In this document: positions 17,890 to 34,208 of the stretch, one piece after another
Position numbering within the stretch: position 1 is the first letter of the stretch
Layout of the letters: each line of letters opens with the position of its first letter
Source of the DNA: Candidatus Micrarchaeota archaeon
Lineage (GTDB): Archaea > Micrarchaeota > Micrarchaeia > Micrarchaeales > Micrarchaeaceae
NCBI GenBank assembly: GCA_964390895.1
Contig: CAYMJD010000001.1
Coordinates: forward strand, 1 to 36,904
DNA length: 36,904 bases
Direction: 5' to 3'
Position numbers and translations under genes: made by a program
Notes under the pieces: generated by a model
Database searches by the model: none
Told to the model about the DNA's origin: nothing
What the model saw: the letters and a program-made list of their open reading frames with translations, nothing else

Positions 17890-18798
17890 ATGGATCCAAA
17901 GGTTGCCTACGAGAGCACCCTCAAAGAAGTGAAGAAGCACATAGCTGGCAAGGGGGACATAATAGAGCTCATGTTCATAGCGATCGTCGCAAACGGGCAT
18001 GTCCTCTTAGAGGGGGTTCCGGGGGTTGCGAAGACAACTATGGCGAAGACGCTGGCCGACGTCATAAACGCCACCTTCAGAAGGATACAGGGAATGCCAG
18101 ACCTTGACATAAGGGATATAATAGGCTACACATACGTAGATGACGCCAACAGCATCGTGCTCAAGAAAGGGCCTATATTCACCAACATACTGCTAATAGA
18201 CGAGTTGAACAGGGCACCTCCGAAGACCACCACCGCGCTCCTCGAGGCGCTGGAGGAGCGCCAGGTAACGATCTCGAACCAGACGCTGCAGCTGGAGAGG
18301 CCGTTCATAGCGATGGCGACGCAGAACCCATTGAACATAGAGGGCACCACCTCTCTCCCCAAAGTTCTCGCTGACAGGTTTCTGATGCGCCTTGCAGTCA
18401 CATATCCAGAAGAGCAGGATGAGGAGGACATACTGAGGCTGAAGGAGCGCGAAGAAACAGTTGTAACGAACAAGGTGCTCGAGACAAAGGACATACTCGA
18501 CATACAGTCACAGCTCAACACAGTCAACCTAAGTGATGATGTCGCAGATTACATAACAAGGCTGGTCAGGGCTACGAGGACGGACATACACGTAGTCATG
18601 GGAGGGAGCCCGAGGGCCGACATAAGCTTCATGAGGTGTGGGAAGGCGAAGGCCTTGATAGAAGGCAGAAAGGAGGTCAGCATAGACGACATAAAGTTCC
18701 TCGCGAAGCCGATACTGAGCCACAGGATAGTGGTCAGGTCCACCGGGGGCATAGGCGTCAACGGAGTGATCGATGGGCTGGTCGCGACCTTGCGCTAG
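17890..18798 (+). CDS. MoxR-family AAA+ ATPase
   Basis: HVLLEGVPGVAKTTMAKTLA (Walker A), ILLIDELNRAPPKTTTALLEALEERQVT (Walker B/sensor), FIAMATQNP and GGSPRADISFMRCGKA are the canonical MoxR/AAA_3 pattern. The stop lies 10 nt before the first pilin-like gene. Confidence 0.9.
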   Translation: MDPKVAYESTLKEVKKHIAGKGDIIELMFIAIVANGHVLLEGVPGVAKTTMAKTLADVINATFRRIQGMPDLDIRDIIGYTYVDDANSIVLKKGPIFTNILLIDELNRAPPKTTTALLEALEERQVTISNQTLQLERPFIAMATQNPLNIEGTTSLPKVLADRFLMRLAVTYPEEQDEEDILRLKEREETVVTNKVLETKDILDIQSQLNTVNLSDDVADYITRLVRATRTDIHVVMGGSPRADISFMRCGKAKALIEGRKEVSIDDIKFLAKPILSHRIVVRSTGGIGVNGVIDGLVATLR

Positions 18799-18808
18799 CG
18801 GTGTAACA

Positions 18809-19282
18809 ATGCACAACCACAAAGCACAAAGCGCGGTCGAGTACCTAACTACGTACGGCTGGGCGATAATGATAATCGCAATCGTGCTCTCTGTAATATT
18901 CTACTTCGGGGTTTTCAGCCCGGGGAGATTCATCAACACGCAGTGCATATTCCCCGCGGACTTCTCCTGCCTGAACAGCTTCATGTCCACGAACGGCGTA
19001 ATAGTTATCAACATACAGCAATCCACACCATACACGATAAACATAAAAGCATACGGATGCAACACAAACCCGGTGTACACTACAATGACGACCCCCGCGA
19101 ACCAGATATCGGTCTTGATAGGGTCCAAGACAACTCTCTCGATACAGTGCTACAACGGCACGAACGCGTTCTCGGGGAGCGTCGGCACGCTCTTCAACGG
19201 GTACATAATACTAAATTACACGGACGTGCCTACCGGCTTCAACAAGGGGGTATTCGGCACGGTAGTTGAGAAGATCAGCTGA
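18809..19282 (+). CDS. type IV pilin-like protein with class III signal peptide (candidate major pilin)
   Basis: The N-terminus MHNHKA|QSAVEYLTTYGWAIMIIAIVLSVIFYF has a short basic leader, Q at +1, the (Q)S-x-x-E-Y-L motif of the archaeal class III signal peptide family and a hydrophobic helix. The product is small (157 aa) with a Ser/Thr/Asn-rich beta-type body. I chose the ATG at 18809, preceded by GGTG, over the track start 18773, which overlaps moxR. Confidence 0.8.
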   Translation: MHNHKAQSAVEYLTTYGWAIMIIAIVLSVIFYFGVFSPGRFINTQCIFPADFSCLNSFMSTNGVIVINIQQSTPYTINIKAYGCNTNPVYTTMTTPANQISVLIGSKTTLSIQCYNGTNAFSGSVGTLFNGYIILNYTDVPTGFNKGVFGTVVEKIS

Positions 19283-19353: not shown

Positions 19354-22092
19354 ATGGGCATACGCAAGAGGAAATCGCAGATATCCCTCGAATTCATGAT
19401 AGTGTACTCGTTCGTGCTTATAATATTCATAGTGGTCTTTGCGCTGATAACCCTGCAGGGGTCGTCCTCGATGGCTGCAGAGAGCTCTACCTCGCTGCAG
19501 CTGACTACCCAAAACATAGCTAGCGCAATCGACCGTGCACTGGCATCGGGCAACGGCTTCAACATCACAATGCCGCTCGCCGGGAGCCTCCTAAACGCGC
19601 CGTACAACCTCTATATATCCTCTACTGGCGTTGTCTTCGCGAACATGAGCATAGGGACGCAGAGCGTCAATGCGAGGGCGTTCAGCAGCGCGCGCAGCCT
19701 TAACATAAATGGGAGCCTTCTCCCATCAAGCACAAACACAATAAAGGTTTACAAGGTCTCTACAAACATAGGCACATTCTCTGTAGCGAATTATTACGGC
19801 ACCGTATACATAGATACCCCAGCGCCAAGCACGGTCAATATAACGAATTCAATGCAGGATAGCGTCTTTAATGTAAAATTCGGGAACTTCAATGGGCAGA
19901 CAAGCTACATCAATGTGGGTACAAATGGCCTTCCTATAGGCAACAGCATAAGGAGCGTATTCGCATGGGTCAACTGGAAAGGCGGCACAACCCAGCCCGC
20001 GATTTTTTACTATGGCACAAGGGCGAGTACGTATCAGGACGCAGGCTTATACATAAGCTCTGCTGGAAACGTAGCTTTTGACGGTTACACAACATATCCG
20101 GCAAGCAACCTTCCATTAACAACAAACAGCTGGCATTTTGTTGGATATACTTACAGCGGTGGCAGCAACGTGGTTGTCTACCAAGACAGCAACACGCCAC
20201 AAACATTAGCTTTGTCATCCGCATTGAATACAATACTGCCAGCCAGCGATGCAGCTGACATAGGAAAGCAGAGCAATGGGTTCACAGGGCAGCAGTTCCC
20301 AGGCTCGATTGCCAACATACAGGTATACAACAGCGTGCTCACATCAACACAGGTAAGCGCATTGTATGCGGCTGGCTATGGCGGCACGCCATTCTCAAAA
20401 AGCAATCTTGTAGCTTGGTGGCCGTTGAACTACAGCACAATAGATTATTCAGGCAGTTTGAATACAGGAAACGCAAAAAACGTCACATATACAGCAACAA
20501 CAACAGTAAAGCTACACAACACATTTATGGATGGTTCAAATGGCGCGGGCGCAAAGGTCGGCTTCATATCTAATGCAGCAAAGGTAAACAACACAAGGGT
20601 CGCGCTTGCCATAGCCGCGGACTCGAATGGCAATGCAACAGTCGTCATAAACTCCACATTTAACTCCACAAAGCAGAAGCTGTTTGTCAACGCGCTGAAC
20701 ATAAACAAGACGCTTGCTAGTAATGTTATCTCGTGGCTGCCCCTTGATGCGGGTTACGGCAACACAATATACGACCTCTCAGGGAACTACAACAACGGCA
20801 CATTCCAGAGCACAAGCAACTGGTTTTCTATGCCATCAAACGCCACAAATATTAGGACAGCGAGCTTCTCGAACAACGCGCAGATATCCGCCACGGTCCC
20901 AAGAATAAGCACAGCCGCAAACTCGATAAACACGGTAACATTCTGGATGAATTCAACATCGGCAAACGGAATCGCGCCGTTCGGCTTCCACAACTACAAC
21001 CTTTTCATAGGGTCAAACTGCCTGGGGTTCAACACCACAGGCAACGGAATATACGGCTTCAATTCTGTCGGGCTGCCGAACAGATGGCAGTTCATAGCAG
21101 CGGAGTTCTTTAATGGCGCTTATACAGCCAACTCCCTCATATATCTCAACGGAACACAGAAGACGCTCTCGCAGTGCACAGGCACAGCCTCGACCGGCAC
21201 AGCATCGACAGATGTTTATGTTTCTGGGTGGGGCAACAGCGCAAAGTACTACTTTACAGGCAACATAGCAAACCTTCAGATATACAACGCATCGTTGACC
21301 GCAGCACAGGTGCTTCAGCTCTACCGGCAGGGGATAAGCGGAGTGCCGCTCTACAACGCGAGCCTTGTATTGTGGCTGCCGCTTGACGGCAACACAATCG
21401 ATTACAGCAGCTCGCATGTGGCAAGCGCATCCTCAAATGTGCTATTCAAGAATTATAAGTACAACAGATTCAATTCAACAACAAGCGTGGCGAATTTCAC
21501 TGGGACAAACGCAATATATGCGGCCAAGGTCGCGTTCAACAGCCTTGCGTACAATTTCTCGGTCAACCAATGGTTCATGCTCAAGGTACAGGCCACCAAC
21601 GGAGTGATTAATGGTGGACAGAGTCCTGTCGTGGACATATACAACGGAATAACGAACAACGGGATAGGGGGAAGCCAGAACTTTGACTTCGGAGGGGGCT
21701 GGGCCGGAGGAACAAACAAAAACTTCGCATGGGGCGCATACTGGCCGACCAGCCTCCAGTTCTGCAGTACACCCTCAGGTACAATACAGACCGGTGTCTG
21801 GTATGACGCGCTTGTCGCAGTAAAAGGCTATACCAATGTGACAGTGTACATAAACGGGGTAAACCAGAAGAACTGCATACTGGCAGCTTCTCTATCAACG
21901 GTCGCGTCATACGGCACTAATCTCATGGTTGGTGTGGGGGTCAACCCAACAAACACAATACAGTATGGGGGCGTGTATGTTGCGGATGTGGAGGTATACA
22001 AAAGCACCCTCACCCAGGCGGAAGCTGCGCAGCTCTACCAACAGGGGCTGCCGTCGCACGACATTGTCAATGTATCATTGTGGTCCACATGA
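19354..22092 (+). CDS. giant pilin-like surface protein: class III signal peptide plus three LamG/concanavalin-like (Laminin_G_3-type) modules
   Basis: The N-terminus is MGIRKRKS|QISLEFMIVYSFVLIIFIVVFAL (QxSxE motif plus a TM helix). There are three modules, each ending in a G-x-IAN(I/L)Q(V/I)YN-x-x-LT-x-x-Q...LY motif followed by the linker (L/V)(V/L)xW(W/L)PL(N/D)G.. DYSG, which is characteristic of Laminin_G_3 domains. I counted about 23 N-x-S/T sequons by hand, and the protein has almost no Cys or charged residues. Confidence 0.85.
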   Translation: MGIRKRKSQISLEFMIVYSFVLIIFIVVFALITLQGSSSMAAESSTSLQLTTQNIASAIDRALASGNGFNITMPLAGSLLNAPYNLYISSTGVVFANMSIGTQSVNARAFSSARSLNINGSLLPSSTNTIKVYKVSTNIGTFSVANYYGTVYIDTPAPSTVNITNSMQDSVFNVKFGNFNGQTSYINVGTNGLPIGNSIRSVFAWVNWKGGTTQPAIFYYGTRASTYQDAGLYISSAGNVAFDGYTTYPASNLPLTTNSWHFVGYTYSGGSNVVVYQDSNTPQTLALSSALNTILPASDAADIGKQSNGFTGQQFPGSIANIQVYNSVLTSTQVSALYAAGYGGTPFSKSNLVAWWPLNYSTIDYSGSLNTGNAKNVTYTATTTVKLHNTFMDGSNGAGAKVGFISNAAKVNNTRVALAIAADSNGNATVVINSTFNSTKQKLFVNALNINKTLASNVISWLPLDAGYGNTIYDLSGNYNNGTFQSTSNWFSMPSNATNIRTASFSNNAQISATVPRISTAANSINTVTFWMNSTSANGIAPFGFHNYNLFIGSNCLGFNTTGNGIYGFNSVGLPNRWQFIAAEFFNGAYTANSLIYLNGTQKTLSQCTGTASTGTASTDVYVSGWGNSAKYYFTGNIANLQIYNASLTAAQVLQLYRQGISGVPLYNASLVLWLPLDGNTIDYSSSHVASASSNVLFKNYKYNRFNSTTSVANFTGTNAIYAAKVAFNSLAYNFSVNQWFMLKVQATNGVINGGQSPVVDIYNGITNNGIGGSQNFDFGGGWAGGTNKNFAWGAYWPTSLQFCSTPSGTIQTGVWYDALVAVKGYTNVTVYINGVNQKNCILAASLSTVASYGTNLMVGVGVNPTNTIQYGGVYVADVEVYKSTLTQAEAAQLYQQGLPSHDIVNVSLWST
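20911..21253 (+). repeat. copy A of a 343-nt LamG-core cassette duplicated between the two adhesin genes
   Basis: Manual alignment with 22928..23270 gave about 30 mismatches, no indels and a constant offset of 2017 nt. Perfect runs of 26-35 nt occur, e.g. acattctggatgaattcaacatcggcaaacggaat. Confidence 0.9.
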
Positions 22093-22628
22093 GGCTCTTT
22101 AAAATCCAGTTCTGGAGCTTTGACATCATCTTCGCGATAGTCATCTTCGCTATTGCGCTGACGATATTGGCATTCACGTGGTACAACGTGGGCACGCAGC
22201 TCTCTCTGGGATATGGCGCGGGCGCCACGCTTATGCAATTGCAGACCCAGTCTGTCTCGATGTCGCTGCTCTCACAGGGATCTCCGGCCAACTGGGAAAG
22301 CATAATCAACATCACGAACACGTCAACATGGAGCGGCGCCGGAATAGGCATAGGATCGATAAACAACACAATGATCTCGTCAAAGAAGCTTTATGCATTC
22401 ATTGCTATGTCGAACTACAGCTACCAGTCGACAAAGCAGCCACTGGGCGTTTCCTACGACTACTTCATAAGGATATTCAACAACAACATGAACATAACAA
22501 TAGGGAAAAACCCATCGCAATACGGTGCGCTGACGATCGATGTGGCAACGAAAAGCGCATACATAAACGGGCAGCCCGTGACAGTGAAAACTATCTTGTG
22601 GTCCAACACAACATTTGGTGTTAGCTGA
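22089..22628 (+). CDS. minor pilin-like protein (class III signal peptide)
   Basis: The N-terminus is MRLFKI|QFWSFDIIFAIVIFAIALTILAF and the body is Asn/Ser/Thr-rich. The ATG at 22089 forms an ATGA overlap with the upstream stop (the track start 22080 is also possible). Confidence 0.7.
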   Translation: MRLFKIQFWSFDIIFAIVIFAIALTILAFTWYNVGTQLSLGYGAGATLMQLQTQSVSMSLLSQGSPANWESIINITNTSTWSGAGIGIGSINNTMISSKKLYAFIAMSNYSYQSTKQPLGVSYDYFIRIFNNNMNITIGKNPSQYGALTIDVATKSAYINGQPVTVKTILWSNTTFGVS

Positions 22629-24385
22629 TGAGGAACTACAAAGGATTCATATTCTCTATCGACGCAACGATTGCGCTGATCGTTGCGGCCATAGCCGTAT
22701 CGATACTTCTATACATGAACTTCTCAGCTCCAAAGGGGCTCTTCTCGTCGACCAACGAAGCGGAGAGCCTGCTCCAGAACCTTCTCACGATAAAACTCAA
22801 GGATGCGCTTGCCAATGGGTTCATACCGCAGAAGTATCTGACACCATATATAGCGCAAGCAAATGGAACGCTTCTGGCGAAATTTTCTGGGACAGGCCAG
22901 GTGACAGCGAACGTGCTGCTGGTTACAACAGCCGCAAACTCGATAAACACAGTGACATTCTGGATGAATTCAACATCGGCAAACGGAATTGTTCCGTTCG
23001 GCTTCCACAACTACGACCTTTTCATAGGGTCGAACTGCCTGGGGTTCAACACCACGAGCAACGGAATCTATGGCTTCAATTCCGTTGGTCTGTCAAACAA
23101 GTGGCAGTTCATAGCAGCGGAGTTCTTTAATGGAGCATACACAGGCAACTCCCTCATATATCTCAACGGAACGCAGAAGACGCTCTCGCAGTGCACAGGA
23201 ACAGCATCGACCGGCACAGCATCGACAGATGTTTACATATCAGGATGGGGCAACAGCGCAAAGTACTACTTCAACGGAACCATAACAAATCTGCAGATCT
23301 ACAACATATCACTTTCGGCTCAGCAGATAACACAGCTCTACCAACAGGGGATAGGCGGCGCACCCATAACAACGCAAAACCTTGTGGCATGGTATCCCCT
23401 TAATGGCAACCCGGGGGATTATTCTGGACACAAGTACACGGGAACACAAACAAACCTGAACTACATAAAAGCGAATTTTATACCATTCAAATCATACAAC
23501 ATATCGCTGAATAGCTCTCTGCTGGAAACGATGGCCTCGCTTTACACCAACAATCAGGGAGCTTACGCATCGCTGATGCTCAATTACGTTGAGAATTCCT
23601 CTACAGTGGGCATACTTGTAAACAGCACGTTCGCCCCTGCAGTGAGCACCTCAGGCTTCAACGGGGCTAACTCTTATGTTTATGCGCCTGTGGGCTCTTG
23701 GCTTGGCACAAACCACAGCCTCACAGCCGCAGCATGGTTCTACAGCCCGTCAGGGGGAGGCCCAGTCTTCGGTGTTACGAGCAGCCCCCCAGGCGCAGGC
23801 TGGAACTCCCCGTTCATAAGTGTAGATTCAAACGCGCTAATCTATGGATGGATAAACGGCTCTACCAAGCTCACCTACCAGGGGAAATTCAACACATGGT
23901 ATTTCGTAGCTGTATCGTACAACAAGACTGCAAAGGTCGTCACACTCTTTGTCAATGGCCAGCAGTCATCTAACACGATCGGCAAATACGTTACATTGGG
24001 GGCTTTCGATTACTTCACCACATACATAACAGGAACAAAGCCCGCAAACGTGCCCAGCTATTTTAATGGGAATATAGCAAACCTTCAGATATACAACACA
24101 TCGCTCACAGCGCAGCAAATATCGCTGCTCTACCAGAGGGGAATTGGCGGAATTCCGATATACAATTCAACGCTCTCCGGATGGTGGCCCCTGGATGGCA
24201 ATGCAAACGATTATTCCGGAAACAACAACGACGGCATACCCAACAATATGGTTTACGGTGCCTCTACCTACATACCTTCAGCTCTGGGCGCAAGCTATGA
24301 GGTAAGCAAGGCAACAGCGCCAATGGCGATAAACATAAATGGCAACGTTCTTTTAAGGAACGTGAGCGTGATCACATGGCGATAG
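22628..24385 (+). CDS. large pilin-like surface protein: class III signal peptide plus two LamG/concanavalin-like modules
   Basis: The N-terminus is MRNYKG|FIFSIDATIALIVAAIAVSILLYM. Two modules carry the terminal motifs GTITNLQIYNISLSAQQITQLYQQG and GNIANLQIYNTSLTAQQISLLYQRG, plus WYPLNGNPGDYSG and WWPLDGNANDYSGNNNDG linkers. The first module is a near-copy of a module in 19354..22092. Confidence 0.85.
   Translation: MRNYKGFIFSIDATIALIVAAIAVSILLYMNFSAPKGLFSSTNEAESLLQNLLTIKLKDALANGFIPQKYLTPYIAQANGTLLAKFSGTGQVTANVLLVTTAANSINTVTFWMNSTSANGIVPFGFHNYDLFIGSNCLGFNTTSNGIYGFNSVGLSNKWQFIAAEFFNGAYTGNSLIYLNGTQKTLSQCTGTASTGTASTDVYISGWGNSAKYYFNGTITNLQIYNISLSAQQITQLYQQGIGGAPITTQNLVAWYPLNGNPGDYSGHKYTGTQTNLNYIKANFIPFKSYNISLNSSLLETMASLYTNNQGAYASLMLNYVENSSTVGILVNSTFAPAVSTSGFNGANSYVYAPVGSWLGTNHSLTAAAWFYSPSGGGPVFGVTSSPPGAGWNSPFISVDSNALIYGWINGSTKLTYQGKFNTWYFVAVSYNKTAKVVTLFVNGQQSSNTIGKYVTLGAFDYFTTYITGTKPANVPSYFNGNIANLQIYNTSLTAQQISLLYQRGIGGIPIYNSTLSGWWPLDGNANDYSGNNNDGIPNNMVYGASTYIPSALGASYEVSKATAPMAININGNVLLRNVSVITWR
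22928..23270 (+). repeat. copy B of the 343-nt LamG-core cassette
   Basis: See copy A. Weaker similarity continues for about 90 nt further, to about 23360 in this copy and about 21345 in copy A. Confidence 0.9.
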
Positions 24386-25923
24386 TGAAAAACAGGAGAG
24401 GGCTTCTGCTCTCTTTGCTGACGATAGTGCTTTTCATACTTATGCTGGGGGAGCTTTTCACTTACGCAGTAATAGATATAAACTTTTCGCAAATATCGCA
24501 GCAATCAGCAGTGCTCATGGGAGCTGGGAGCTTTGCGCAAACAGTCAACACCGGAATGCAGGGCTTTCTGCAGGCCTCTTTGGACAAAGCAGTGGCGCTC
24601 TATTCGGCAAGCGGCTGCCTGGGAAACTTCACAGCAACAATCAAGGGGATGATCAGCACCGGGAATGTGGGGCCATCATGCACAACACCAACAAACAGCC
24701 TCAGTAGCGCGACACTTTCAAAGTATGTGGGCGCGCTGCAGAACCAGGCTGTGCAGCAGCAGGTCGCTCTCACAATTGCAAACCCCGTCTTGAATGTCTA
24801 TCAATCTACCCCAGCAAGCGTTGCCGCCTCATACAGCGCTTTTGTGACAATAAACTCCGCAGCAGGGACATTCAGCTACCCCCTCAATGTCAAGGCAACA
24901 GCGCAGACCTCCCTCAACATGCTGTCAGTTCCGATAACGCTCACAAACTCGCAGGCTTCTGCACTCCCAGCCAATACCCAGATAACCGTCAGCTTCAACT
25001 CGCAGGCTTATCGCCCATACGAGAAGGCCAACCTAGGGAACATACGCTTCTATTACAATTCAACGGCGCTTTACAGCTGGTGCGAGGCGAACTGCGCAAC
25101 CACCGCAACAAGCAACTCGATTTTCTGGGTCAAGATTCCTGTATCGATAGGCGCCGGCAACAGCCTGGCAATAAACATGTACATGCTGCCAAAGGGCGTT
25201 GATTTCGACAAGGTTTTTGCAGGGGAGGCGCCCCAACTCAGCCCAACATACGCCCAATACGACAACGGCGCAAACGTGTTCGTTGTTTATAATAACGGCC
25301 TGTCGGCCTTTGCAATCAGCCAGACAGGAACTGGAGGCTCCGGCCCCTCTGCAACAGCAAGCGCGCCGTCCCCATACACGTACGCGATAACAGGTTCAGT
25401 AGCCGGTGGGGTTGGTGGCGCAAACACATGGACCATAAACGGCGAGACGGCAACAGCGCTTCCGACCTCATATATAGCGCAGATGCTTGTGCAGACAACA
25501 GGTTCCTCTCCGTTGACTGACATGCTTACAAACTTCCAGGGGGTCTCGGGCCAATTCTACGTGTTCAGGTTTGACATGCGCAGCGCGGACTTTGACCTGA
25601 TCGGCAAGTATCCATCTGGAAGTTCCATCACACTGCCCGTCGCAACCAGCTCTTCCACATCAAGCACAGGAACATGGTACCAGATGACAGCCGTTGACAA
25701 TGCCGATAGCCTCTCACTCTACAAATCCACATCGTTCAGCCTATCAAGCTTCGGCACGCAGGAGGTTGCGCCAACCACTGGGGCAGGCTTTACTGGGGGG
25801 GGCATCGGCGTTACCACAGACGGCGCCGCGTCCACAGGCTACTGGACGATTATACTTGTCAGAGTCTACCCGCCAAGCAACACCATGCCGACTGCAGCAT
25901 TCGGCTCTCCCAGCGTGACATAA
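24376..25923 (+). CDS. pilin-like surface protein with DUF2341-like and beta-sandwich C-terminal region
   Basis: The N-terminus is MAIVKNRRG|LLLSLLTIVLFILMLGELF. The central segment PITLTNSQASALPANTQITVSFNSQAY..ANLGNIRFYYNSTALYSWCEAN....IFWVKIPVSIGAGNSLAINMYMLPKG resembles the DUF2341 signature (D-x-R-F..., WVK-(V/I)-P, i-Y-M-Y-y-G). A 10-nt overlap links it to the upstream gene. Confidence 0.7.
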   Translation: MAIVKNRRGLLLSLLTIVLFILMLGELFTYAVIDINFSQISQQSAVLMGAGSFAQTVNTGMQGFLQASLDKAVALYSASGCLGNFTATIKGMISTGNVGPSCTTPTNSLSSATLSKYVGALQNQAVQQQVALTIANPVLNVYQSTPASVAASYSAFVTINSAAGTFSYPLNVKATAQTSLNMLSVPITLTNSQASALPANTQITVSFNSQAYRPYEKANLGNIRFYYNSTALYSWCEANCATTATSNSIFWVKIPVSIGAGNSLAINMYMLPKGVDFDKVFAGEAPQLSPTYAQYDNGANVFVVYNNGLSAFAISQTGTGGSGPSATASAPSPYTYAITGSVAGGVGGANTWTINGETATALPTSYIAQMLVQTTGSSPLTDMLTNFQGVSGQFYVFRFDMRSADFDLIGKYPSGSSITLPVATSSSTSSTGTWYQMTAVDNADSLSLYKSTSFSLSSFGTQEVAPTTGAGFTGGGIGVTTDGAASTGYWTIILVRVYPPSNTMPTAAFGSPSVT

Positions 25924-25930
25924 TAAGATA

Positions 25931-26920
25931 TCAGAGGGCACCTATGTTCGCGAAGAGCGCGCCTATCACGCTCCCTACCACAACATAGATCAGCAGCCCC
26001 ACGATTATGAAGACAGGCACATACCTCAATCCCTTTACTATGGAGCCGTTCGACATAGCAGACATTATCAGGCTTGAGAACCCTGTTATGATTATTATCG
26101 CGATGATCGAGAAGTTGCCATATTGGCTAACGGTTATCTGCGGCGCTCTGGGCTTGAGAAAAGATAGGCCACTGCTTGGAATGCTCCCCAGGTTCTGCAC
26201 TGATATCTGAGACCACACCTTCGTTGTTATGGTTATCATCTGGCTCGTAAGGCCGTATAGGACAGGGGCGGCTATGATCCCTGCGAACACTATGAATATG
26301 CTGTACATGAGCATCTGGCCCGCTATCTCCTTCTGTGCCATGTGCTGCGCCCTGAGGTCCTTGGAAAGCTGGTTAAGGAGGTCTGCTATTGCCCCGCCAT
26401 ACCTTATGGACTCGGTTATCATGCGCACCGAATGCTGGAGCTGTATGGACCTGTATTTCCTTCCGAGCTCGTTGAGGGCCAGCTCCATCGTCTCTCCGCT
26501 GAAGAGCTTCCTGGCGAGCTCCTTCATGTCCTCACTTAGGGGAGCGAACTCCGGCTTCGCTGCCAGCAGCAGCGACCTGTCAAGCGATATGCCGCTCCTC
26601 AGGTTCGCGGCGGTGAGCATAAAATAGTCAGGCAATATCTCCTCCACCCTCGTTTTCCTCCTGTCTATCCTGTATTCCAGTATGAGGTATATGATTGCGG
26701 CGAACAGGACCCATCCGGTTACTCCCAGGCCGCCGGCGAGCAGTATCTGGACGTGCATGGCGAGCGAGAGGAGCGACGCCACCGCTACGAATATGACTGC
26801 GCCGGGCACCACCATCAATTCCACGAGCTTGTTGATGCTCCATTTAACTCCGGCGAGCGCCATCTCCCCCGAGAGCCTCAACGCGAGATTCCTTGAGACA
26901 AACCTTTCGAAGTTGACCAT
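25931..26920 (-). CDS. type IV filament membrane platform protein, T2SSF domain (TadC/FlaJ-half-like)
   Basis: The 329-aa protein has N-terminal TM segments. Its cytoplasmic T2SSF-like helical domain reads LPDYFMLTAANLRSGISLDRSLLLAAKPEFAPLSEDMKELARKLFSGETMELALNELGRKYRSIQLQHSVRMITESIRYGGAIADLLNQLSKDLR. C-terminal TM segments follow. Confidence 0.8.
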   Translation of the reverse strand: MVNFERFVSRNLALRLSGEMALAGVKWSINKLVELMVVPGAVIFVAVASLLSLAMHVQILLAGGLGVTGWVLFAAIIYLILEYRIDRRKTRVEEILPDYFMLTAANLRSGISLDRSLLLAAKPEFAPLSEDMKELARKLFSGETMELALNELGRKYRSIQLQHSVRMITESIRYGGAIADLLNQLSKDLRAQHMAQKEIAGQMLMYSIFIVFAGIIAAPVLYGLTSQMITITTKVWSQISVQNLGSIPSSGLSFLKPRAPQITVSQYGNFSIIAIIIITGFSSLIMSAMSNGSIVKGLRYVPVFIIVGLLIYVVVGSVIGALFANIGAL

Positions 26921-26924
26921 GGCA

Positions 26925-27977
26925 TCACATCGTGAAAACAGGCCTCGCCGACCTTATGAGCTGCAGGAACACTATCTGCAAGAAGAGTATCCCGACGAGC
27001 ACGGCGTCGAGTATTATCGGAGTTACAGCGAATATGGAGACAAACGTAGTGAGTATCGTTATGACGGCTATCCCCATGCTTGGGAAGATTATGCCGAAGA
27101 GCATGTAGAACATGGCGATCGCGTTGAACCTCTGGCCATACCTCCTCATCTCTATCATGCGCTCCTGCGACAGCTCGTCTATTATGCTCTGCAGCGCAGA
27201 GACTATGTCTGCGCCGGTCTTTATGCTCACGCTCGCCTGGAGCATCAGCCTCTTGAACGAGGCGCTCTTCGATGTCTCCAGTACGTCATCTATCGCATCG
27301 CCAAGCGAGCTCCCCAGTTGCACCTTCTGCACTATCTTCGCGAACTCCTTGCTCGCCTCGCCGTAGCCTGTGCTGACCATGGTTACTGCGTTGAACAAGG
27401 GCATGCCCGACCTCAGTGATATTATCATGTCCCGCGCGGCGAACATTATGTCCCTGTCAATCAGCTTGACTGCGTGCAGCCCCTTCTGCTTGGGGAAATT
27501 GAGGAAGTTGTGCAGCCCGACATAGAATACGCCTATGCCTACGGCGAAGCCGAGTATTATGCTTTCTGGCAGCTCCATCCCGATGCGCATGAACACGATT
27601 ATAAGAGAAAAGCCTACGACGATCGCCAGCGTTATCGAGGCAATCACCATGCGCTTCACGAAGTCATAGAGGCTCTGCCTTATCCCCTGCTCGCGCAGCG
27701 CCACATCGAGCCCCTTCTGCTTTGCGCCCAAGCTCTCTATGTAGAGCCTGAAGCGGGTCGGCCTCTTCGGGGTTCGTTCTGTTATCTGCTGCGCGGTCTT
27801 CTCCTCCACCTGCGATAGAAGGGGTTTCTGCTGGGTTCCATGCTGCGCATCGCCCCCCTTTTGCTGCTGAGCCTCCGCCTTTTCCCCCTTCTTGAAGAAC
27901 GAGAACCTGTTCGGCTTGGGCTCGAGCTCTATGGTTTTGCCGTCGACCTCTATTGTCCTCTTCTTTTTGTTGAACAC
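26925..27977 (-). CDS. type IV filament membrane platform protein, T2SSF domain (TadB/FlaJ-half-like)
   Basis: The 350-aa protein has TM segments flanking a T2SSF-like domain. That domain reads IMFAARDMIISLRSGMPLFNAVTMVSTGYGEASKEFAKIVQKVQLGSSLGDAIDDVLETSKSASFKRLMLQASVSIKTGADIVSALQSIIDEL. It lies 4 nt upstream of the second platform gene. Confidence 0.8.
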   Translation of the reverse strand: MFNKKKRTIEVDGKTIELEPKPNRFSFFKKGEKAEAQQQKGGDAQHGTQQKPLLSQVEEKTAQQITERTPKRPTRFRLYIESLGAKQKGLDVALREQGIRQSLYDFVKRMVIASITLAIVVGFSLIIVFMRIGMELPESIILGFAVGIGVFYVGLHNFLNFPKQKGLHAVKLIDRDIMFAARDMIISLRSGMPLFNAVTMVSTGYGEASKEFAKIVQKVQLGSSLGDAIDDVLETSKSASFKRLMLQASVSIKTGADIVSALQSIIDELSQERMIEMRRYGQRFNAIAMFYMLFGIIFPSMGIAVITILTTFVSIFAVTPIILDAVLVGILFLQIVFLQLIRSARPVFTM

Positions 27978-27989
27978 TACAATCCCTGC

Positions 27990-28652
27990 TCACATACGGA
28001 GTGCTGCAGCCGCCTCGTCGAGCCTGCTGTTCCTGAGCTCCCAGAGCGCGCTTGCCGGGTCAGGCATCTTGAGCCTTCCCTTTGCATAAAGCTTCCTCTC
28101 TTTCGCTACCATCGCCTTCAATCCGTCAACCTCCTTTTTGATTATGCCGATGTGCTCGTCGTCGAATGCGTTGCTCCCTGCGCCTGTTATTATCTTCTCA
28201 AGCTCGCCTATCTGGTCAGATACTGTGAGGTTGGGTAGCACGAGCTGCTCCTTGCGCTGCTTCTGCGTTTCCCCTCCGAGCTCAAGCTTGGGCATCTTGA
28301 TATGCCCGACGATCTTTGCAAGCTCGTCCCTCGCGCTCTTCGCCTCCTTCTCTATGTACGGCAGCGCGACGCCCATCTTTTTCTGGGCGGTCTGCACGGC
28401 CTGCACGACCTGCTGCTCCCCGGCGAGTGCGCTCTTTTTCGAAGCAGAAGCCTTTTTCGCCTCGAAAGCCGTTATTAGCCTAACGAGCTCCTGGTAGCTG
28501 CGCACCTCTTGTATTTCTTCCTTGGGATCCATCGTCTGACCTATGCCTATCGTGGTGAGCTGGCGCTCGGAGGCCTCAAGCTCAAGCTTCCCTACCTGTT
28601 CGGCGAGCTCTTCATAAGACGGGTTTTGGTCGCCGACCAGCTCATCTGACAT
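27990..28652 (-). CDS. hypothetical coiled-coil protein encoded between the secretion ATPase and the platform genes
   Basis: The 220-aa product is highly charged (E/K/Q/A-rich) with heptad-like sequence and no TM segment or signal peptide. It is tightly packed in the operon, with 20-nt and 12-nt spacers. Confidence 0.6.
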   Translation of the reverse strand: MSDELVGDQNPSYEELAEQVGKLELEASERQLTTIGIGQTMDPKEEIQEVRSYQELVRLITAFEAKKASASKKSALAGEQQVVQAVQTAQKKMGVALPYIEKEAKSARDELAKIVGHIKMPKLELGGETQKQRKEQLVLPNLTVSDQIGELEKIITGAGSNAFDDEHIGIIKKEVDGLKAMVAKERKLYAKGRLKMPDPASALWELRNSRLDEAAAALRM

Positions 28653-28672: not shown

Positions 28673-30181
28673 CTATTTAAACATGTCTGGCGAGAACTTC
28701 TCGTCGCCTTTTACTATGTCCAACACCCTCTTCCTGTCTTTGTAATAATTGGCCACGACGCTGCCAGCGTCGTTGACGGATATTACGTCGTTGTCCGCCA
28801 TCCACGACAGGATCCTGGCCTTGGTCGCAGCGTCGTCCTCTATCTCGTTCTTGGTCAGCCCCCCATAGAGCGTTATTGTTTCTGACAGGTGTATCAAATC
28901 ACCAACCTGGTTGAACCTGTCGGTGCGTATGTCCCAGCGGTAGTTGACGTTCGTGTCGCCGCTCTTCATTATCTCTGCGAACTCGAGTGTCCTCCTTATG
29001 CCCCTCGTCCTGTGCCTGAACTGCACGAGCACGGCGCCGAGCGCGTTGAGGAGAACCTTCGGCATGCCGATGGGTGGGTTGGACATCCTTATTATCGTGT
29101 CGTAGGCGTTGTCAGCGTGCACGGTGCCATAAACAGCATGCCCCGTATGTATGGCCTCGAACATCGTCTCGGCGTCTTTCTGCGTCCTTATCTCCCCTAT
29201 GAGAACTATGTCCGGCCTCTGCCTCAATGCGTTTATCATAAGATCGTAAAGCGTCACCTCTCCCTTGCCCTCCGGGTTCGGCATCCTTGTGAGCATCGGC
29301 ACCCACTGGAAGAAATCAGGCAGCGAAAGCTCCCTCGTTTCCTCTACAGAGATTATCCTCCTCGATGGGTTGAAGAATATGCTCATCGCGTTGAGGAAGC
29401 TGGTCTTCCCGCTTGCGGTGCCCCCTGATATGAGGAGGCTTATCTCGTTCTCTATGCACGTCCACGTCAGCCCTGCCATGAACGGGTCTATCGTGTGGTT
29501 CTTTATCAATGCAGGCATTGTCCAGGGGTTCTTGGCGAACTTCCTGATTGTTATCGTGTTGCCCTTCTGCGACACAGGGAACAGCGTGGCATTGACCCTC
29601 GAGCCGTCGAGCAGCTCGGCGTCCATGAGCGGCACCAGGTTGTTTATCTCACGGCCGACGCCCCTGCCTATCTGCTCCGCTTTGTTGTAAACCTCATCTT
29701 CTGTTGCAGGCTTTATGTTCGTCTTGCACCACGAGAAGTCCCTGTGGAAGACCCATATGTACTCGTTGGAGCTGTTTACCGCAATCTCTTCCAAAGCGTC
29801 GTCGGCAAGCAGCGCCTCCAGGTCTCCCAGCCCGAGCATCATGTTCATTATGTAGGAAATGAGCAGCTTCTTCGCCTCTGCATCTATGCCAGGAAGGTAC
29901 TTGTTGATGAGCATGCTGCTTGCCTCTATGTACTTGTTCTTCATCTCGTCCAGATAGCCAGGGTCGTTTATCCTGTTTGGGTCCATAGGCACTATCGATA
30001 TCAGGTCCCCCCTGAACGACATAAGGAGCAATCTTGTCGCCTGGCTTATCCCCCTGAAAGTCACTTCGTAAAGCGGCGCGAACTCGTCCGTACGCGTGTA
30101 TATGCGCACGTTGACCTCTGTCCCGCGCGCGTTCAGCTTGTAGGTTCCCAATATCCTCGCGTTGTCTTCCCTGTCTTCCAT
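28673..30181 (-). CDS. type II/IV secretion system ATPase (FlaI/TadA/EpdL/VirB11 family)
   Basis: Walker A is LLISGGTASGKTSFLNAM, the Asp box is IISVEETRELSL, Walker B is RPDIVLIGEIR and the His box is TGHAVYGTVHA. The N-terminal domain is FlaI-like. Confidence 0.92.
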   Translation of the reverse strand: MEDREDNARILGTYKLNARGTEVNVRIYTRTDEFAPLYEVTFRGISQATRLLLMSFRGDLISIVPMDPNRINDPGYLDEMKNKYIEASSMLINKYLPGIDAEAKKLLISYIMNMMLGLGDLEALLADDALEEIAVNSSNEYIWVFHRDFSWCKTNIKPATEDEVYNKAEQIGRGVGREINNLVPLMDAELLDGSRVNATLFPVSQKGNTITIRKFAKNPWTMPALIKNHTIDPFMAGLTWTCIENEISLLISGGTASGKTSFLNAMSIFFNPSRRIISVEETRELSLPDFFQWVPMLTRMPNPEGKGEVTLYDLMINALRQRPDIVLIGEIRTQKDAETMFEAIHTGHAVYGTVHADNAYDTIIRMSNPPIGMPKVLLNALGAVLVQFRHRTRGIRRTLEFAEIMKSGDTNVNYRWDIRTDRFNQVGDLIHLSETITLYGGLTKNEIEDDAATKARILSWMADNDVISVNDAGSVVANYYKDRKRVLDIVKGDEKFSPDMFK

Positions 30182-31507
30182 TCAATCAACCTTTTTCCCG
30201 CTGTCCTTCCCCCATAGTTTTCTCTTCCTGGGCTTTTCCTGCCCTTTCTTGACGCCTGTGGCAACCTTACCAATCTTCCTCGTTCCGGTATCTATGCCGC
30301 TCTCCATGTCAACTATGTCTCCCTCTATCGCCCCGGCCTTCTTGGACACGTCGGATATCCTCTTCACGCGCTCCCTGAGCGTCTGCTCCCCCACGTTTAT
30401 GGCCGAAAGATCCTGCTTGAGCTTGCGTATCTGCTCCCTGTCGGCCTGTATCCTCTTCTCTATCTCGGCAGAGCTGCTCTGTATCTCGTAGATCACGTCA
30501 TAGAACTTCGAAGAGTCGCCGAAGGCGTTCTTGAGGTTCGTTATGCCTTCAAGCACTATTGACGAGCTTTGGCCCAGCATCCGCGCACCGTCGGCCATCT
30601 CCTGGTGGCCCTTGGCGTAGGCGTCGTTGAATCTCTTAAGGCTGTCATTGAGCGCTTTCTTCTCCTTCTCCTGCTCCCTCCTGAAACCGTCCACCTCGGC
30701 CAGCACCGCCTTCGCCTCCTTTATCCGCTCCTTTAGGAGCTCTGACGCGCTCCTTATCTCCCTTGTATAGTCGCCTAGCTGCGCAGCGGCGTCGCCCCTC
30801 TGCTTCTCCATGTCCGCGCGTATACGCTTTACCTGTGCATCAAGCTCCGAACGCACCTCGTCGAAGCGCTTGTCCTTGTTTGAACGCATTGTTTCCGAAA
30901 GGGTTTCAAGTTTCTTCGATTCCTCGAATACCTGCTCTACGCGCTTCACAGCGTCGTCCATGCTTCCCGCAAGGCTTCCCGATTCTATGGTGCTTAGCTT
31001 AGCAAGCATCTCCGTGGCCTTCTTGTTGAGCGACTCATAGTCCCTCTCGAGCCCGTCCCTCATGGAGAAAACCGAGCTCTGCTGCTTCTGCACCTGCGCA
31101 TAGATGTTGTTCAATTCGTTGAGCCTGCTCCTTATCTCGGGCATCTTCTCCGAATAGAGCTTGTTCACGTCGCTTCCGCTGGCCTTCAGCGTGTCGAGCT
31201 TGGTGGAGACATCCTGGAGCTTTATGAGGTTCGTCTCAAGCTCGCTGTCGAGCGCCTCCTGCTGTATCTTCAGCCGCGCTTCGGCGCTCTTCGCCTCTCC
31301 GGGAGCGACCTCGCTGGACGACACGTACATCCTTCCCAGCTCGTACGTGATCTTGACGAGACCTCCCTTCTCGAGTATCTTCGACCATTCCTCCACTATG
31401 GTGGGAGGGGTCTTCAAATCCAGAGCTATCGCATTGAGCTCCAGCCTGCCCTTCTCGCTGAGCAGCTCAAGCAACGAATCGATCGTGGTTCTCTGCTCAT
31501 CCGCCAT
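30182..31507 (-). CDS. hypothetical protein: N-terminal winged-helix-like domain plus about 350-aa coiled coil, first gene of the ATPase operon
   Basis: The N-terminus is MADEQRTTIDSLLELLSEKGRLELNAIALDLKTPPTIVEEWSKILEKGGLVKITYELGRMYV (wHTH-like). A long E/K/L/S-rich heptad sequence follows, then a basic tail (KKGQEKPRKRKLWGK). The stop abuts the ATPase start codon. I chose the start at 31507; the track start 31579 adds a Cys/basic-rich 24-aa extension. Confidence 0.65.
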   Translation of the reverse strand: MADEQRTTIDSLLELLSEKGRLELNAIALDLKTPPTIVEEWSKILEKGGLVKITYELGRMYVSSSEVAPGEAKSAEARLKIQQEALDSELETNLIKLQDVSTKLDTLKASGSDVNKLYSEKMPEIRSRLNELNNIYAQVQKQQSSVFSMRDGLERDYESLNKKATEMLAKLSTIESGSLAGSMDDAVKRVEQVFEESKKLETLSETMRSNKDKRFDEVRSELDAQVKRIRADMEKQRGDAAAQLGDYTREIRSASELLKERIKEAKAVLAEVDGFRREQEKEKKALNDSLKRFNDAYAKGHQEMADGARMLGQSSSIVLEGITNLKNAFGDSSKFYDVIYEIQSSSAEIEKRIQADREQIRKLKQDLSAINVGEQTLRERVKRISDVSKKAGAIEGDIVDMESGIDTGTRKIGKVATGVKKGQEKPRKRKLWGKDSGKKVD

Positions 31508-31678
31508 GAATACACACTTTATACATAACCTAACAACTTTTTTAGCCCTTTGTATTGCCCGCATAGAGGAAAATTGCAAGGATTAATGGTGGCGCATCTG
31601 CCTCCCCCAGATGGCTCCCGAAAGGCATCCAAATAACAGAGGGTATCCTTTGTAGCATAGCCTTAAATAAGTTTTGTG

Positions 31679-31709: not shown

Positions 31710-32075
31710 GTGAGCGTGATGGAAAAGACAAGCGCGGAGATGAAGGACTTCATAACCAAGGAGGTGCGCCACGCTGTGCTGAAGGTGGTGCTCCTGAAAA
31801 GGATACAGCGCAAAAAGAGCTATTCCTACCAGCTCTTCAAGGACATATGCGAGCACCACAGGTTCTCGGGCCCAGACAAGGCAGACATGAAGAACGACGT
31901 ATACAACACCATAAGCTCGCTCGAGAATTCTGGATACATAAAGGCGAGCGTGGAGACAGAAGCGAACAGGGTGAAGAAGTATTACAGGATAACAAAAAAA
32001 GGGGAAAGGGCGCTCCTCGAAACGCAGAAGATATTCAAGAATGCTGTAAAGGAGATATCAAGGCAGCTCTCCTGA
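31710..32075 (+). CDS. PadR-family transcriptional regulator
   Basis: SYSYQLFKDI....DVYNTISSLENSGYIKASVETEANRVKKYYRITKKGERALLE is the characteristic PadR winged-helix pattern. The start is GTG 31710 or ATG 31719. Confidence 0.8.
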   Translation: MSVMEKTSAEMKDFITKEVRHAVLKVVLLKRIQRKKSYSYQLFKDICEHHRFSGPDKADMKNDVYNTISSLENSGYIKASVETEANRVKKYYRITKKGERALLETQKIFKNAVKEISRQLS

Positions 32076-33076
32076 TGCGGTTTTTCATGGGCAACATAAT
32101 AGAGATAAAAAACCTTGTCAAGAGGTTTGGCAACCTCACCGCAGTGGACAACATAAGCCTAAACATAGGGGGAGGCAAGATATACGGCCTCCTGGGGCCG
32201 AACGGCGCGGGCAAGACAACCACCATAAGCCTTGTCCTCGGGATAGAGAGGCCCACGAGCGGCCGCATATTCGTGGATGGCATGGACAACATGGTCCACA
32301 GGTCGAAGATTAAGCAGATCATAGGCTTCATGACCCAGGAGACGATTGTCGATGCAGACCTTACCGCTTACGAAAATCTTGAGATTGCCGGAAGACTGTA
32401 TCACATCTACGGGGAGGAGCTAGAGGGGGCGATAAGGAATGCGTTGGACGAGGCAGAGCTCACAGAATTCGCGTACAAGAAAGCTGGCTCGTTCTCAGGA
32501 GGTATGAAAAGGCGGCTCTATCTGGTAAAGTCGATGATACAGAGGCCGAAGATACTCATACTCGACGAGCCGACAACAGGGCTCGACGTGCATAACAGAG
32601 TCCAGATGTGGGAGCACATAAAGGAGCTCAACAAGCGCGGGATTACCATAATACTGACGACGCAGTACCTAGAGGAGGCGGACCAGCTCTGCAACGAGAT
32701 ATCCGTAATTGACCACGGGAAGATAATAGCTACAGGAACTCCATCAGAGCTCAAGAAGGCGGTATCGAAGGGCCAGATCCTCGAGATAATAACCACCAAG
32801 GAGACATGCGAGAGGGTCTCAAGGCTTCTAAAGTCGAAGTTCTCGCTTGCGGCAACCGCAAAGGACGACAAGGTCGAGGCGTTCATAGAGAAGGAACCGT
32901 TCCAGACGTTCTCGAGGATAATGGACGTGCTTGTCAGGGAGAAGCTGCCGATAATATCCATAAGCATGCACCTTCCGACAATGGACGACGTCTTCATAAA
33001 GCTGACGGGCTCATCGCTGAGGGACAAGGTCGGGGAGCAGAAGTCCGGGCGCGACAGGGTTTTCCTGAATAGGTGA
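32075..33076 (+). CDS. ABC transporter ATP-binding protein (ABC-2/DrrA-type)
   Basis: Walker A is GLLGPNGAGKTTT, the Q-loop is MTQE, the signature is FSGGMKRRL, Walker B is ILILDEPTTGLD and the H-loop is TTQY. The track ORF 31847..33076 carries a spurious N-terminal extension across padR. I chose ATG 32075 (TGATG overlap with the padR stop); ATG 32087 is an alternative. Confidence 0.9.
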   Translation: MRFFMGNIIEIKNLVKRFGNLTAVDNISLNIGGGKIYGLLGPNGAGKTTTISLVLGIERPTSGRIFVDGMDNMVHRSKIKQIIGFMTQETIVDADLTAYENLEIAGRLYHIYGEELEGAIRNALDEAELTEFAYKKAGSFSGGMKRRLYLVKSMIQRPKILILDEPTTGLDVHNRVQMWEHIKELNKRGITIILTTQYLEEADQLCNEISVIDHGKIIATGTPSELKKAVSKGQILEIITTKETCERVSRLLKSKFSLAATAKDDKVEAFIEKEPFQTFSRIMDVLVREKLPIISISMHLPTMDDVFIKLTGSSLRDKVGEQKSGRDRVFLNR

Positions 33077-33080
33077 GCGC

Positions 33081-34199: not shown

Positions 34200-34208
34200 G
34201 GTGAATAT

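Follow-up and report, generated by a model that had tools for sequence, protein, structure and literature searches.

LamG modules on pilin-like proteins of Micrarchaeota: a conserved gene cassette and its candidate role at the tip of an archaeal type IV pilus

Little is understood of the means by which DPANN archaea identify their hosts and fasten to them. In this study, we examined a 36,904-nucleotide stretch of DNA from a Candidatus Micrarchaeota archaeon (GenBank assembly GCA_964390895.1, contig CAYMJD010000001.1, positions 1 to 36,904 of the forward strand; hereafter the window). An earlier reading of its letters (the original prediction) had described two of its proteins, of 912 and 585 residues (p912 and p585), as pilin-type N-termini fused to three and two LamG/concanavalin-like lectin modules, and had proposed them as filament-borne adhesins. 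The locus thus raises the question of whether these proteins are indeed pilin-like in their N-termini and lectin-like in their folds, and what kind of assembly might display them. We find that they belong to a defined set of four pilin-like genes, present across Micrarchaeota beside type IV pilus machinery, with predicted cleavage sites, module boundaries and signs of module exchange, where previously there was a vague note of LamG proteins near pilus loci.

LamG modules of p912 and p585

The two proteins are encoded in a cluster at 18.8-31.6 kb that has two converging arms, five pilin-like genes on the plus strand and machinery genes on the minus strand. The pilin-like genes, assigned here to families A to E, are listed below with arrows at the predicted cleavage sites:

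19354..22092, plus strand: p912 (family A), modular pilin-like protein; open reading frame as earlier described, supported by Pfam, AlphaFold2 and relatives
22089..22628, plus strand: p182 (family B), small minor-pilin-like protein, MRLFKI↓QFWSFD
22628..24385, plus strand: p585 (family C), modular pilin-like protein, MRNYKG↓FIFSIDA, supported by Pfam
24376..25923, plus strand: p515 (family D), pilin-like protein, short form without LamG, NRRG↓LLLSLLTIVL
18809..19282, plus strand: p169 (family E), small pilin-like protein, likely start MHNHKA↓QSAVEYLTTYGWAI; the mechanical open reading frame runs from 18773

Neighbouring genes among those for p912, p182, p585 and p515 overlap by 1-10 nucleotides, which suggests translational coupling, and from this overlap of start and stop codons we take the four to form one operon.

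Both large proteins matched the Pfam family Laminin_G_3 (PF13385) far above its cut-off of 27.6 bits, p912 with 85.8 bits in three stretches and p585 with 88 bits in two (E about 1e-24), with weaker Pfam matches to the pentraxin and sialidase N-terminal lectin families. The module numbers originally given, three and two, are thereby borne out, for p912 also by a Foldseek comparison of its structure model. The parts of the two proteins are as follows:

19354..19548, plus strand: p912 residues 1-65, class III signal (RKS↓QISLEF) and long N-terminal helix (AlphaFold2 helix 4-65)
19549..19833, plus strand: p912 residues 66-160, beta-rich head of the pilin module (eight strands in AlphaFold2)
19849..20388, plus strand: p912 LamG module 1, residues 166-345 (best Pfam stretch 180-335, spanning the full profile; AlphaFold2 strands with predicted local distance difference test values, pLDDT, of ~80-90)
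20470..20739, plus strand: p912 middle beta domain, residues 373-462, without a Pfam name (AlphaFold2 strands; conserved in the homologue alignment)
20791..21348, plus strand: p912 LamG module 2, residues ~480-665 (core near-identical to p585 module 1; low pLDDT)
21421..22068, plus strand: p912 LamG module 3, residues ~690-905, followed by a conserved C-terminal tail ending in VNVSLWST (Pfam, motif and AlphaFold2)
22865..23362, plus strand: p585 LamG module 1, residues ~80-245 (Pfam)
23660..24157, plus strand: p585 LamG module 2, residues 345-510 (best Pfam stretch 345-499, profile positions 1-151 of 151)
24260..24382, plus strand: p585 conserved C-terminal tail (SYEVSKATAPMAININGNVLLRNVSVITWR; orthologue consensus AYQVSKASxPLxIxxNGxxxxYNVSVVxWR)

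Structure models cover p912, at full length (built with 14 homologues) and as its N-terminal module, and the fold of p585 rests on Pfam together with 45% identity to p912 over 457 aligned positions. In the full-length AlphaFold2 model, a helix (residues 4-65) is followed by a beta domain (69-153), a LamG sandwich (166-340), an unnamed beta domain (373-462) and two more LamG-like sandwiches reaching residue 908. Searched against PDB with Foldseek, this model matched best a Bacteroides carbohydrate-binding protein (4dqa, E 2.6e-10), and further matches were to neurexin LNS arrays, laminin LG domains and pentraxins, with probability 1.0 and target-normalised TM-scores of 0.63-0.76. The LamG modules of p912 are thus of beta-sandwich/jelly-roll fold by both AlphaFold2 and Foldseek; the alternative outcome, a fold of some other kind, did not appear.

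The motifs by which the modules had been recognised fit this picture in part. The repeated C-terminal motif G-x-I-(A/T)-N-(I/L)-Q-(I/V)-Y-N..L-(T/S)..Q..LY stands as originally described, being found exactly twice in each protein (p912 residues 317 and 636; p585 residues 217 and 481), with a degenerate third copy at p912 residue 874; it is the canonical last strand and helix of Laminin_G_3. The second motif, W-W/Y-P-L-N/D-G-N..DYSG, had been regarded as a linker between modules. Its strict pattern occurs in p585 (residues 255 and 519), but p912 carries looser versions only (WWPLNYSTIDYSG, WLPLDAGYGNTIYDLSG and LWLPLDGNTIDYSS), and it is a standard feature of the Laminin_G_3 repeat, the strand that follows the last strand and helix. 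At the very C-terminus, family A proteins end in a conserved tail, LPxxxxN(V/I)S(L/F)G (22045-22089 in the window), and the conserved tails of families A and C each include one conserved N-x-S sequon. These tails might serve for docking onto a neighbouring subunit.

Heavy N-glycosylation had also been proposed from the number of sequons. The hand count of 23 in p912 proved exact, p585 has 17, and the near absence of cysteine likewise holds (4 in p912, 2 in p585). At 2.5-3.3 per 100 residues, the sequon density of the two proteins is 5-10 times that of cytoplasmic proteins in the window (0.2-0.6). Residue shuffling gave expected numbers of 20.9 +/- 3.8 for p912 (P=0.32) and 12.1 +/- 3.0 for p585 (P=0.07), and an enrichment beyond composition is thus rejected for p912 and marginal for p585. 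The high density follows from a composition rich in Asn, Ser and Thr and poor in charge, and carries no extra signal.

Class III signals at the N-termini

In all five pilin-like proteins the N-terminus consists of a short basic leader and then about 20 hydrophobic residues, and in a scan of all reading frames they were the only proteins of the window with such an N-terminus. To learn what is kept in these N-termini, we turned to their relatives. A search of 1.84 billion cluster representatives (50%-identity clusters) with the N-terminal module of family A returned 246 relatives, 174 of them at E<=1e-10. In every one the module lies at the extreme N-terminus, and the lengths of the proteins cluster near 900 and 1100 residues. 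Among the 144 relatives with an intact start, position -2 is Lys or Arg in 91%, position -1 is Ala, Gly or Ser in 82% and Leu in 16%, and Gln at +1 and Glu at +5 are found in 100%. The resulting pattern, [KR][AGS]↓QIALEF, is preceded by a leader of ~3-30 residues and followed by ~20 hydrophobic residues. Such modules give a specific marker by which the cassette can be found.

Pilins of M. maripaludis that are processed by EppA have a leader of 5-13 residues ending in Gly, a conserved Gln at +1 and Glu at +5 (PMC3875500). The same +1 Gln and +5 Glu are present in p912 (QISLE) and p169 (QSAVE). This pair is lacking in p585 (FIFSID, with Asp at +6), p182 (QFWSFD, with Asp at +6) and p515, which is without an acidic residue near the mature N-terminus. 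Each of these families nevertheless keeps a site of its own. In family B, whose orthologues share 44-59% identity, QFWS(F/L)D follows a Lys or Arg at -2 in 29/29 orthologues, and -1 is Ala or Gly in 27/29, with Met or Leu as the other residues seen there. The family C site is KG↓F(I/V)FT(L/V)DA, with Gly at -1 in 27/28 orthologues and invariant F+3 and D+6, and that of family D, KG↓(I/V/L)(L/M)(L/F)TL, is found in 22/22. Family E comprises 64 homologues of 150-165 residues in Micrarchaeota, none with a Pfam domain; 51/64 carry the QSAxEY register of its site [KR]A↓QSAxEYL, and among these -2 is Lys or Arg in 48/51 and -1 is Ala in 33/51. Taken over families B-E, Lys or Arg at -2 and Gly or Ala at -1 are present in at least 90%. 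The pilin-type N-termini of p912 and p585, as originally read, thus turn out to be family-conserved class III signal motifs and not generic membrane anchors. Membership of the class III family follows from this conservation of the motif, and not from the Pfam Class_IIIsignal model.

Structurally, the N-terminal module of p912 (residues 1-176) was modelled by AlphaFold2 with a pLDDT of 79.7 as a 61-residue helix (5-65) bearing an eight-stranded head, the latter sharing 31-48% identity across 20 homologues. This predicted lollipop shape is consistent with a pilin, and is not proof of one. In profile-profile comparisons the pilin modules of families A, B and E align over the signal and first helix only, with a probability of 6-26%, and their heads are not detectably homologous. 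An alignment restricted to the signal and helix is usual for pilins.

Altogether, we consider it likely that these proteins carry class III signals and are substrates of the machinery encoded beside them.

Gene order and module exchange across Micrarchaeota

The machinery arm of the cluster adjoins the pilin-like genes directly, with one T2SSE gene and two T2SSF genes:

25931..26920, minus strand: TadC/FlaJ-like platform protein 1 (Pfam T2SSF, E 9e-15; position conserved)
26925..27977, minus strand: TadC/FlaJ-like platform protein 2 (Pfam T2SSF, E 9e-17; position conserved)
27990..28652, minus strand: highly charged protein of 220 residues without a family match, a cassette member (by tblastn, between TadC and ATPase in 11 loci)
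28673..30181, minus strand: secretion ATPase of FlaI/TadA/VirB11 type (Pfam T2SSE, E 2.6e-33)
30182..31579, minus strand: Lys/Glu-rich protein of 465 residues directly downstream of the ATPase, without a confident family; a gene for ~400-430 residues stands at the same position in loci L001 and L003

How far this arrangement is conserved was assessed in L001, L003 and 30 Micrarchaeota species-representative loci from GTDB, the latter recovered by searching genome contigs with the family A N-terminal profile. The order A-B-C-D, followed on the opposite strand by TadC, TadC, the charged protein and the ATPase, is kept in L001, in L003 and in 22/30 species loci, these 22 being the ones that extend far enough to show it. 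The order is thus kept in every locus of sufficient extent, about two dozen, with the family B gene always between those of families A and C. Nearly all homologues of p912 and p585 are from metagenome bins assigned to Micrarchaeota, with a few labelled Marsarchaeota and one labelled as a bacterium. One contig, L009 (DATLRT010000029.1), holds a full Micrarchaeota-type pilin cassette in a bin labelled 'Candidatus Acidiferrales bacterium', and three other contigs are labelled Marsarchaeota; these labels are probably binning or labelling errors.

The original prediction had seen here a set of one small pilin and four larger pilin-like proteins. This composition does not hold: p182 is not larger than p169 (179 vs 157 residues), and the conserved set consists of the four pilin-like genes A to D, with the small pilin usually encoded elsewhere. 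A p169-type pilin was considered as a conserved part of the cassette and rejected, its gene not being next to the cassette in most other genomes. A gene for a MoxR-type AAA ATPase (17890-18798) ends within the mechanical reading frame of p169; in the other loci examined, no such gene precedes the cassette.

In the window, p515 is without a LamG module; in most relatives, three of the four cassette families have LamG, not two. In family C, Laminin_G_3 was found in 25/25 sequences scanned (that of the window and 24 orthologues) and a PQQ_2 beta-propeller in 16/25, placed between the N-terminal helix and the LamG region (e.g. L001:13836-16001); p585 itself is a short form without the propeller. 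In family D, 16/21 sequences (that of the window and 20 orthologues) have Laminin_G_3 and 4/21 have DUF2341 (best E 6.5e-10); p515 itself matched DUF2341 weakly (E 0.0087; 16.9 bits, below the cut-off of 23.4). A further architecture occurs outside the cassette, in metagenomic Micrarchaeota proteins of ~325 residues (P0042-P0046) that join a p169-type pilin N-terminus (KAQSAMEYLMTYGWAIL) to a single LamG. The modular proteins of the cassette have the organisation by which Raynaud et al. (2021) define modular pilins, an N-terminal pilin module fused to one or more recognisable functional domains that are not peculiar to pilus biology.

Comparison of the individual LamG modules of the window with those of loci L003-L033 revealed best matches in non-orthologous carriers. 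Module 2 of p585 is closest to module 1 of family A proteins from other species (42-46% identity, 124-135 bits), and module 3 of p912 to family C proteins, while the pilin modules share 40-59% identity between species. By these sequence matches, LamG modules appear to have been shuffled among pilin-like genes. Within the window, a tract of ~330 nucleotides is ~91% identical at the DNA level between module 2 of p912 (20920-21250) and module 1 of p585 (22937-23267). It has a sharp 5' edge, and its codon differences are 16 synonymous vs 6 non-synonymous. Such a tract points to recent gene conversion or duplication between the neighbouring genes. As read from these sequences, conserved pilin 'handles' carry recombining binding modules, which is a pattern typical of receptor-recognition proteins.

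A candidate tip complex and its alternatives

What assembly would four such proteins form? By gene organisation, the cassette fits archaeal type IV pilus system 1/clade 1, and its ATPase matches the NCBIfam models partially, with 243 bits to FlaI (below cut-off), 165 bits to TadA and 129 bits to the bindosome model BasE (E 1.9e-37). This system, which has been reported from DPANN, is marked by a pair of platform genes, numerous minor pilins and adhesin-like proteins of large size (PMC4858521; bioRxiv 10.64898/2026.04.22.720090). In line with it, the Epd pili of M. maripaludis are served by two TadC-like genes and one ATPase, and their major pilin is usually encoded elsewhere (PMC4858521; PMC3875500); several minor pilins are essential for piliation there, the signals have a short leader with +1 Gln and +5 Glu, and the locus includes large DUF2341 adhesin-like proteins as well as one protein that joins a class III signal to a carbohydrate-binding domain. 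Unlike Epd system 1, the Micrarchaeota cassette is without a FleN/MinD gene and, in the window and related loci, without an EppA peptidase, the adhesive LamG arrays sit on the pilin-like proteins themselves, and DUF2341 is limited to the few family D sequences noted above.

On balance, we favour the reading that p912, p585, p182 and p515 are minor pilins of an Epd-like, system-1 archaeal type IV pilus and form a tip and priming complex that displays LamG modules for adhesion. Each protein would be made with a class III signal, its N-terminal hydrophobic helix inserting in the membrane, and a FlaK/EppA-type prepilin peptidase encoded elsewhere would cut after the [KR][G/A/S] site. The four helices would then pack on the TadC-like split platform as a priming complex, beneath which the ATPase would extend the shaft from the small pilin (here p169, the candidate shaft or major pilin), and the complex would end at the pilus tip. 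There, the three LamG modules of p912 and the two of p585, or the LamG, beta-propeller and DUF2341 modules of orthologues, would point outward as adhesive modules, since such arrays are too bulky for the shaft. Their most likely target would be glycans or glycoproteins of the host cell or of a biofilm matrix; that the LamG modules bind glycans is quite conceivable, though we stop short of calling it probable. The best candidate for the top subunit is p515, because it is without an acidic residue near its mature N-terminus, in analogy to GspK/PilK and S. sanguinis PilA, which have no Glu5 (PMC9934059).

Closest to this proposed arrangement is the PilA/B/C set of S. sanguinis, in which PilC, a lectin-module pilin in a tip complex with PilA and PilB, binds glycans (PMC9934059). 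The parallel with bacterial minor pilins and tip adhesins drawn in the original prediction is apt, but the small pilin that it counted in lies outside the conserved set. Both systems combine class III signals with a short pilin moiety and grafted beta-sandwich modules (in PilC, Ig-like and ConA-superfamily lectin), both encode several bulky modular pilins along with one small non-modular minor pilin, and in both a predicted tip complex would prime assembly as well as display adhesive modules. PilC differs in being a bacterial protein of 52.8 kDa whose signal is of the N-methylation type (IPR012902) and which has a single lectin module, whereas the archaeal proteins have Q+1/E+5 or FxFTxD signals, arrays of as many as three or four LamG modules in tandem (880-1150 residues) and modular members in three of four minor-pilin families; similarity to PilC was not detectable in sequence. 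A survey based on IPR012902, which found modular pilins to be widespread, covered bacteria only (PMC8179133).

In PilY1/PilC tip adhesins with GspK/PilK, a large adhesive protein is similarly held at the tip by a minor-pilin complex, and the top subunit GspK/PilK is without Glu5, comparable to p515 (PMC13533445). PilY1, however, lacks a class III signal and does not belong to the pilins, while here the adhesive proteins are themselves pilin-like. In PilY1 a C-terminal strand is donated to PilK (PMC13533445), and the short conserved tails of families A and C are reminiscent of it; a beta-strand addition of this kind in Micrarchaeota would be pure speculation by analogy. It enters a bolder version of the favoured reading, which we put forward tentatively and regard as rather doubtful in its entirety: the four genes would encode an archaeal HIJK/PilABC-like complex, in which three subunits carry interchangeable LamG, beta-propeller and DUF2341 receptor modules swapped by recombination, the tails of A and C lock by beta-strand addition as PilY1 does with PilK, and the tip acts as a fast-evolving determinant of host range for Micrarchaeota, with which these episymbionts would seek out and grip their Thermoplasmatales hosts.

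Several observations weigh against the tip-complex reading. In the window, the residue at -1 is Ser in p912 and Ile in p182, both less favourable than Gly or Ala, and processing of p182 may be impaired or altered. The Pfam model Class_IIIsignal (DUF361) matched none of the five N-termini, even at E 10. Foldseek comparison of the p912 N-terminal module with PDB gave no significant pilin match (best E 0.2, weak Ig-like matches), and PDB sequence searches with p169 and with the family A N-terminal profile gave no match. Neither the window nor ~600 kb of related loci contains a prepilin peptidase, as judged by Pfam on the larger reading frames of the window and by a filter for GxGD and multiple transmembrane segments on the window and 32 related loci, which retrieved TadC homologues only; in the Micrarchaeon Mia14, one A24 prepilin peptidase is encoded elsewhere in the genome (PMC5498576). 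Confidence in the full-length p912 model is moderate, with a mean pLDDT of 64.9 and values of mostly 70-90 in the N-terminal half. Finally, a class III signal is no proof of residence in a filament, given that Sulfolobus uses such signals in the non-filament bindosome, and LamG domains also bind proteins or serve as structural or enzymatic accessory modules, so that sugar binding does not follow from the fold.

The alternative that survives best, an unlikely one in our view, is a bindosome-like assembly or pseudopilus, in which the signals are processed and the adjacent machinery builds a short, cell-proximal structure that holds the LamG proteins for capture of substrate or matrix. Non-pilus surface proteins of Sulfolobales use class III signals (PMC4858521), the ATPase does match BasE, the candidate shaft pilin stands outside the conserved cassette, and what the cassette keeps is four large proteins that differ from one another, not one abundant small subunit. 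The ATPase nevertheless fits FlaI and TadA far better than BasE, a well-conserved family of small pilins with +1 Gln and +5 Glu exists in these genomes, and the layout is exactly that of system 1 of M. maripaludis, which does form pili: a pair of platform genes, numerous minor pilins and a major pilin encoded on its own (PMC4858521).

Next, the LamG arrays could be filament-borne without being lectins, binding host or S-layer proteins, acting as spacers or shields, or aiding passage of the pilus through the symbiont's own S-layer. Many of the structural relatives, among them neurexin LNS, laminin LG and pentraxin domains, bind proteins, and according to a suggestion from a survey of archaeal pilus machineries, accessory proteins of adhesin-like type may prepare the cell wall for passage of the filament (bioRxiv 10.64898/2026.04.22.720090). 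We judge this distinctly unlikely, as the top Foldseek match is a carbohydrate-binding protein, weak Pfam matches point to the sialidase N-terminal lectin domain, and where pilins or fimbriae have been described with ConA-like modules, these either bind glycans or have been proposed as adhesins (PMC9934059; TafC, PMC11821415); rapid shuffling of modules, moreover, suits variable external ligands better than a structural role. That the proteins are ordinary signal-anchored type II membrane proteins of the cell surface, lying beside a pilus operon with their helices as uncleaved anchors, would agree with the silent Pfam signal model, the absence of a peptidase from the window and the atypical Ser and Ile at -1, yet is highly improbable, since generic anchors would not keep [KR][G/A/S] with an invariant Q+1/E+5, or FxFTxD, across >140 divergent relatives; moreover, the gene order with the pilus machinery is kept in all of the roughly two dozen loci of sufficient extent, and overlapping start and stop codons indicate one operon.

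How much of this was known before? In the same phylum, the cultured 'Ca. Mancarchaeum acidiphilum' Mia14 has an expanded set of 18 LamG-like proteins (arCOG07813), for which a function in host interaction has been proposed and some of which are 'linked to type IV pili loci' (PMC5498576). Its ATPase/TadC/TadC block (MIA14_0170-0176) has the arrangement seen in the window and is assigned to the clade 1 group; unlike here, the LamG genes are not listed as pilins or pilus components and are absent from Supplementary Table 2 of that paper (PMC5498576). In haloarchaea, TafC of the Tat-fimbriae has a laminin-G-like domain, is located at the filament tip and is a proposed adhesin (PMC11821415; NCBIfam NF052521). 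Membership of p912 and p585 in the TafC family was considered and rejected, the scores of 52 and 32 bits lying far below the cut-off of 410 and being confined to the LamG C-terminal region, and with N-termini that are class III-like and not of the twin-arginine translocation (Tat) type. TafC is built on a Tat signal and donor-strand exchange, and the proteins here on a class III signal and type IV machinery. Already known are thus the modular lectin pilins of bacteria, the link of LamG to pilus loci in Micrarchaeota (Mia14) and a LamG tip subunit on the unrelated Tat-fimbriae. Full-text literature that treats LamG along with class III signals, pilins or DPANN was searched, and no paper describing these proteins as pilins came up; as far as that literature shows, it is new that the class III signals are conserved, that four families make up the cassette and that modules are shuffled.

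A bacterial counterpart in lifestyle is the Saccharibacterium TM7x, likewise of the ultrasmall obligate episymbiont type, whose minor pilins PilX1 and PilX2 have lectin-like C-terminal domains; its type IV pili contribute to host binding, for which there is genetic evidence, and the lectin-like minor pilins have been implicated in episymbiosis (PMC11623550). The TM7x proteins differ from the archaeal ones in fold, with lectin-like domains of L-type and PLL-type. Should the Micrarchaeota proteins indeed be located at the tips of pili and recognise glycans of the host, Micrarchaeota would have in them its first candidate molecules for host recognition, and they would be an archaeal example of the modular-pilin strategy, which is so far documented in bacteria only. 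Such a finding is not surprising in principle; what it provides is concrete candidates for host attachment in DPANN and clean archaeal modular pilins with shuffling lectin-type modules.

Some further features of the window deserve mention. The ATPase is flanked by two cytoplasmic-looking Lys/Glu-rich proteins, those of 220 and 465 residues, whose position is kept in related loci and which are candidate accessory parts of the pilus motor; the larger is, by its composition, probably a coiled-coil protein. Beyond the machinery arm, the region 31847-35828 encodes an ABC-2 transporter pair (ATPase 31847-33076, permease 33081-34199) and then a CARDB/NPCBM-associated surface protein of 539 residues, which on its 12 sequons and C-terminal hydrophobic anchor is another likely glycosylated surface protein. 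The DNA of the window is archaeal, encoding aIF5B, an Rpb4-like RNA polymerase subunit, arginyl- and aspartyl/lysyl-type tRNA synthetases and a Sec61beta-like reading frame. The last of these, of 51 residues (10036-10191), has a hydrophobic C-terminal tail (…FYDAPSKGPKINPKVIVIAVLVFAIVIIIA) and was judged by eye to resemble archaeal Sec61beta. The sole tRNA of the window is a tRNA-Leu(CAG) at 6739-6823 on the minus strand.

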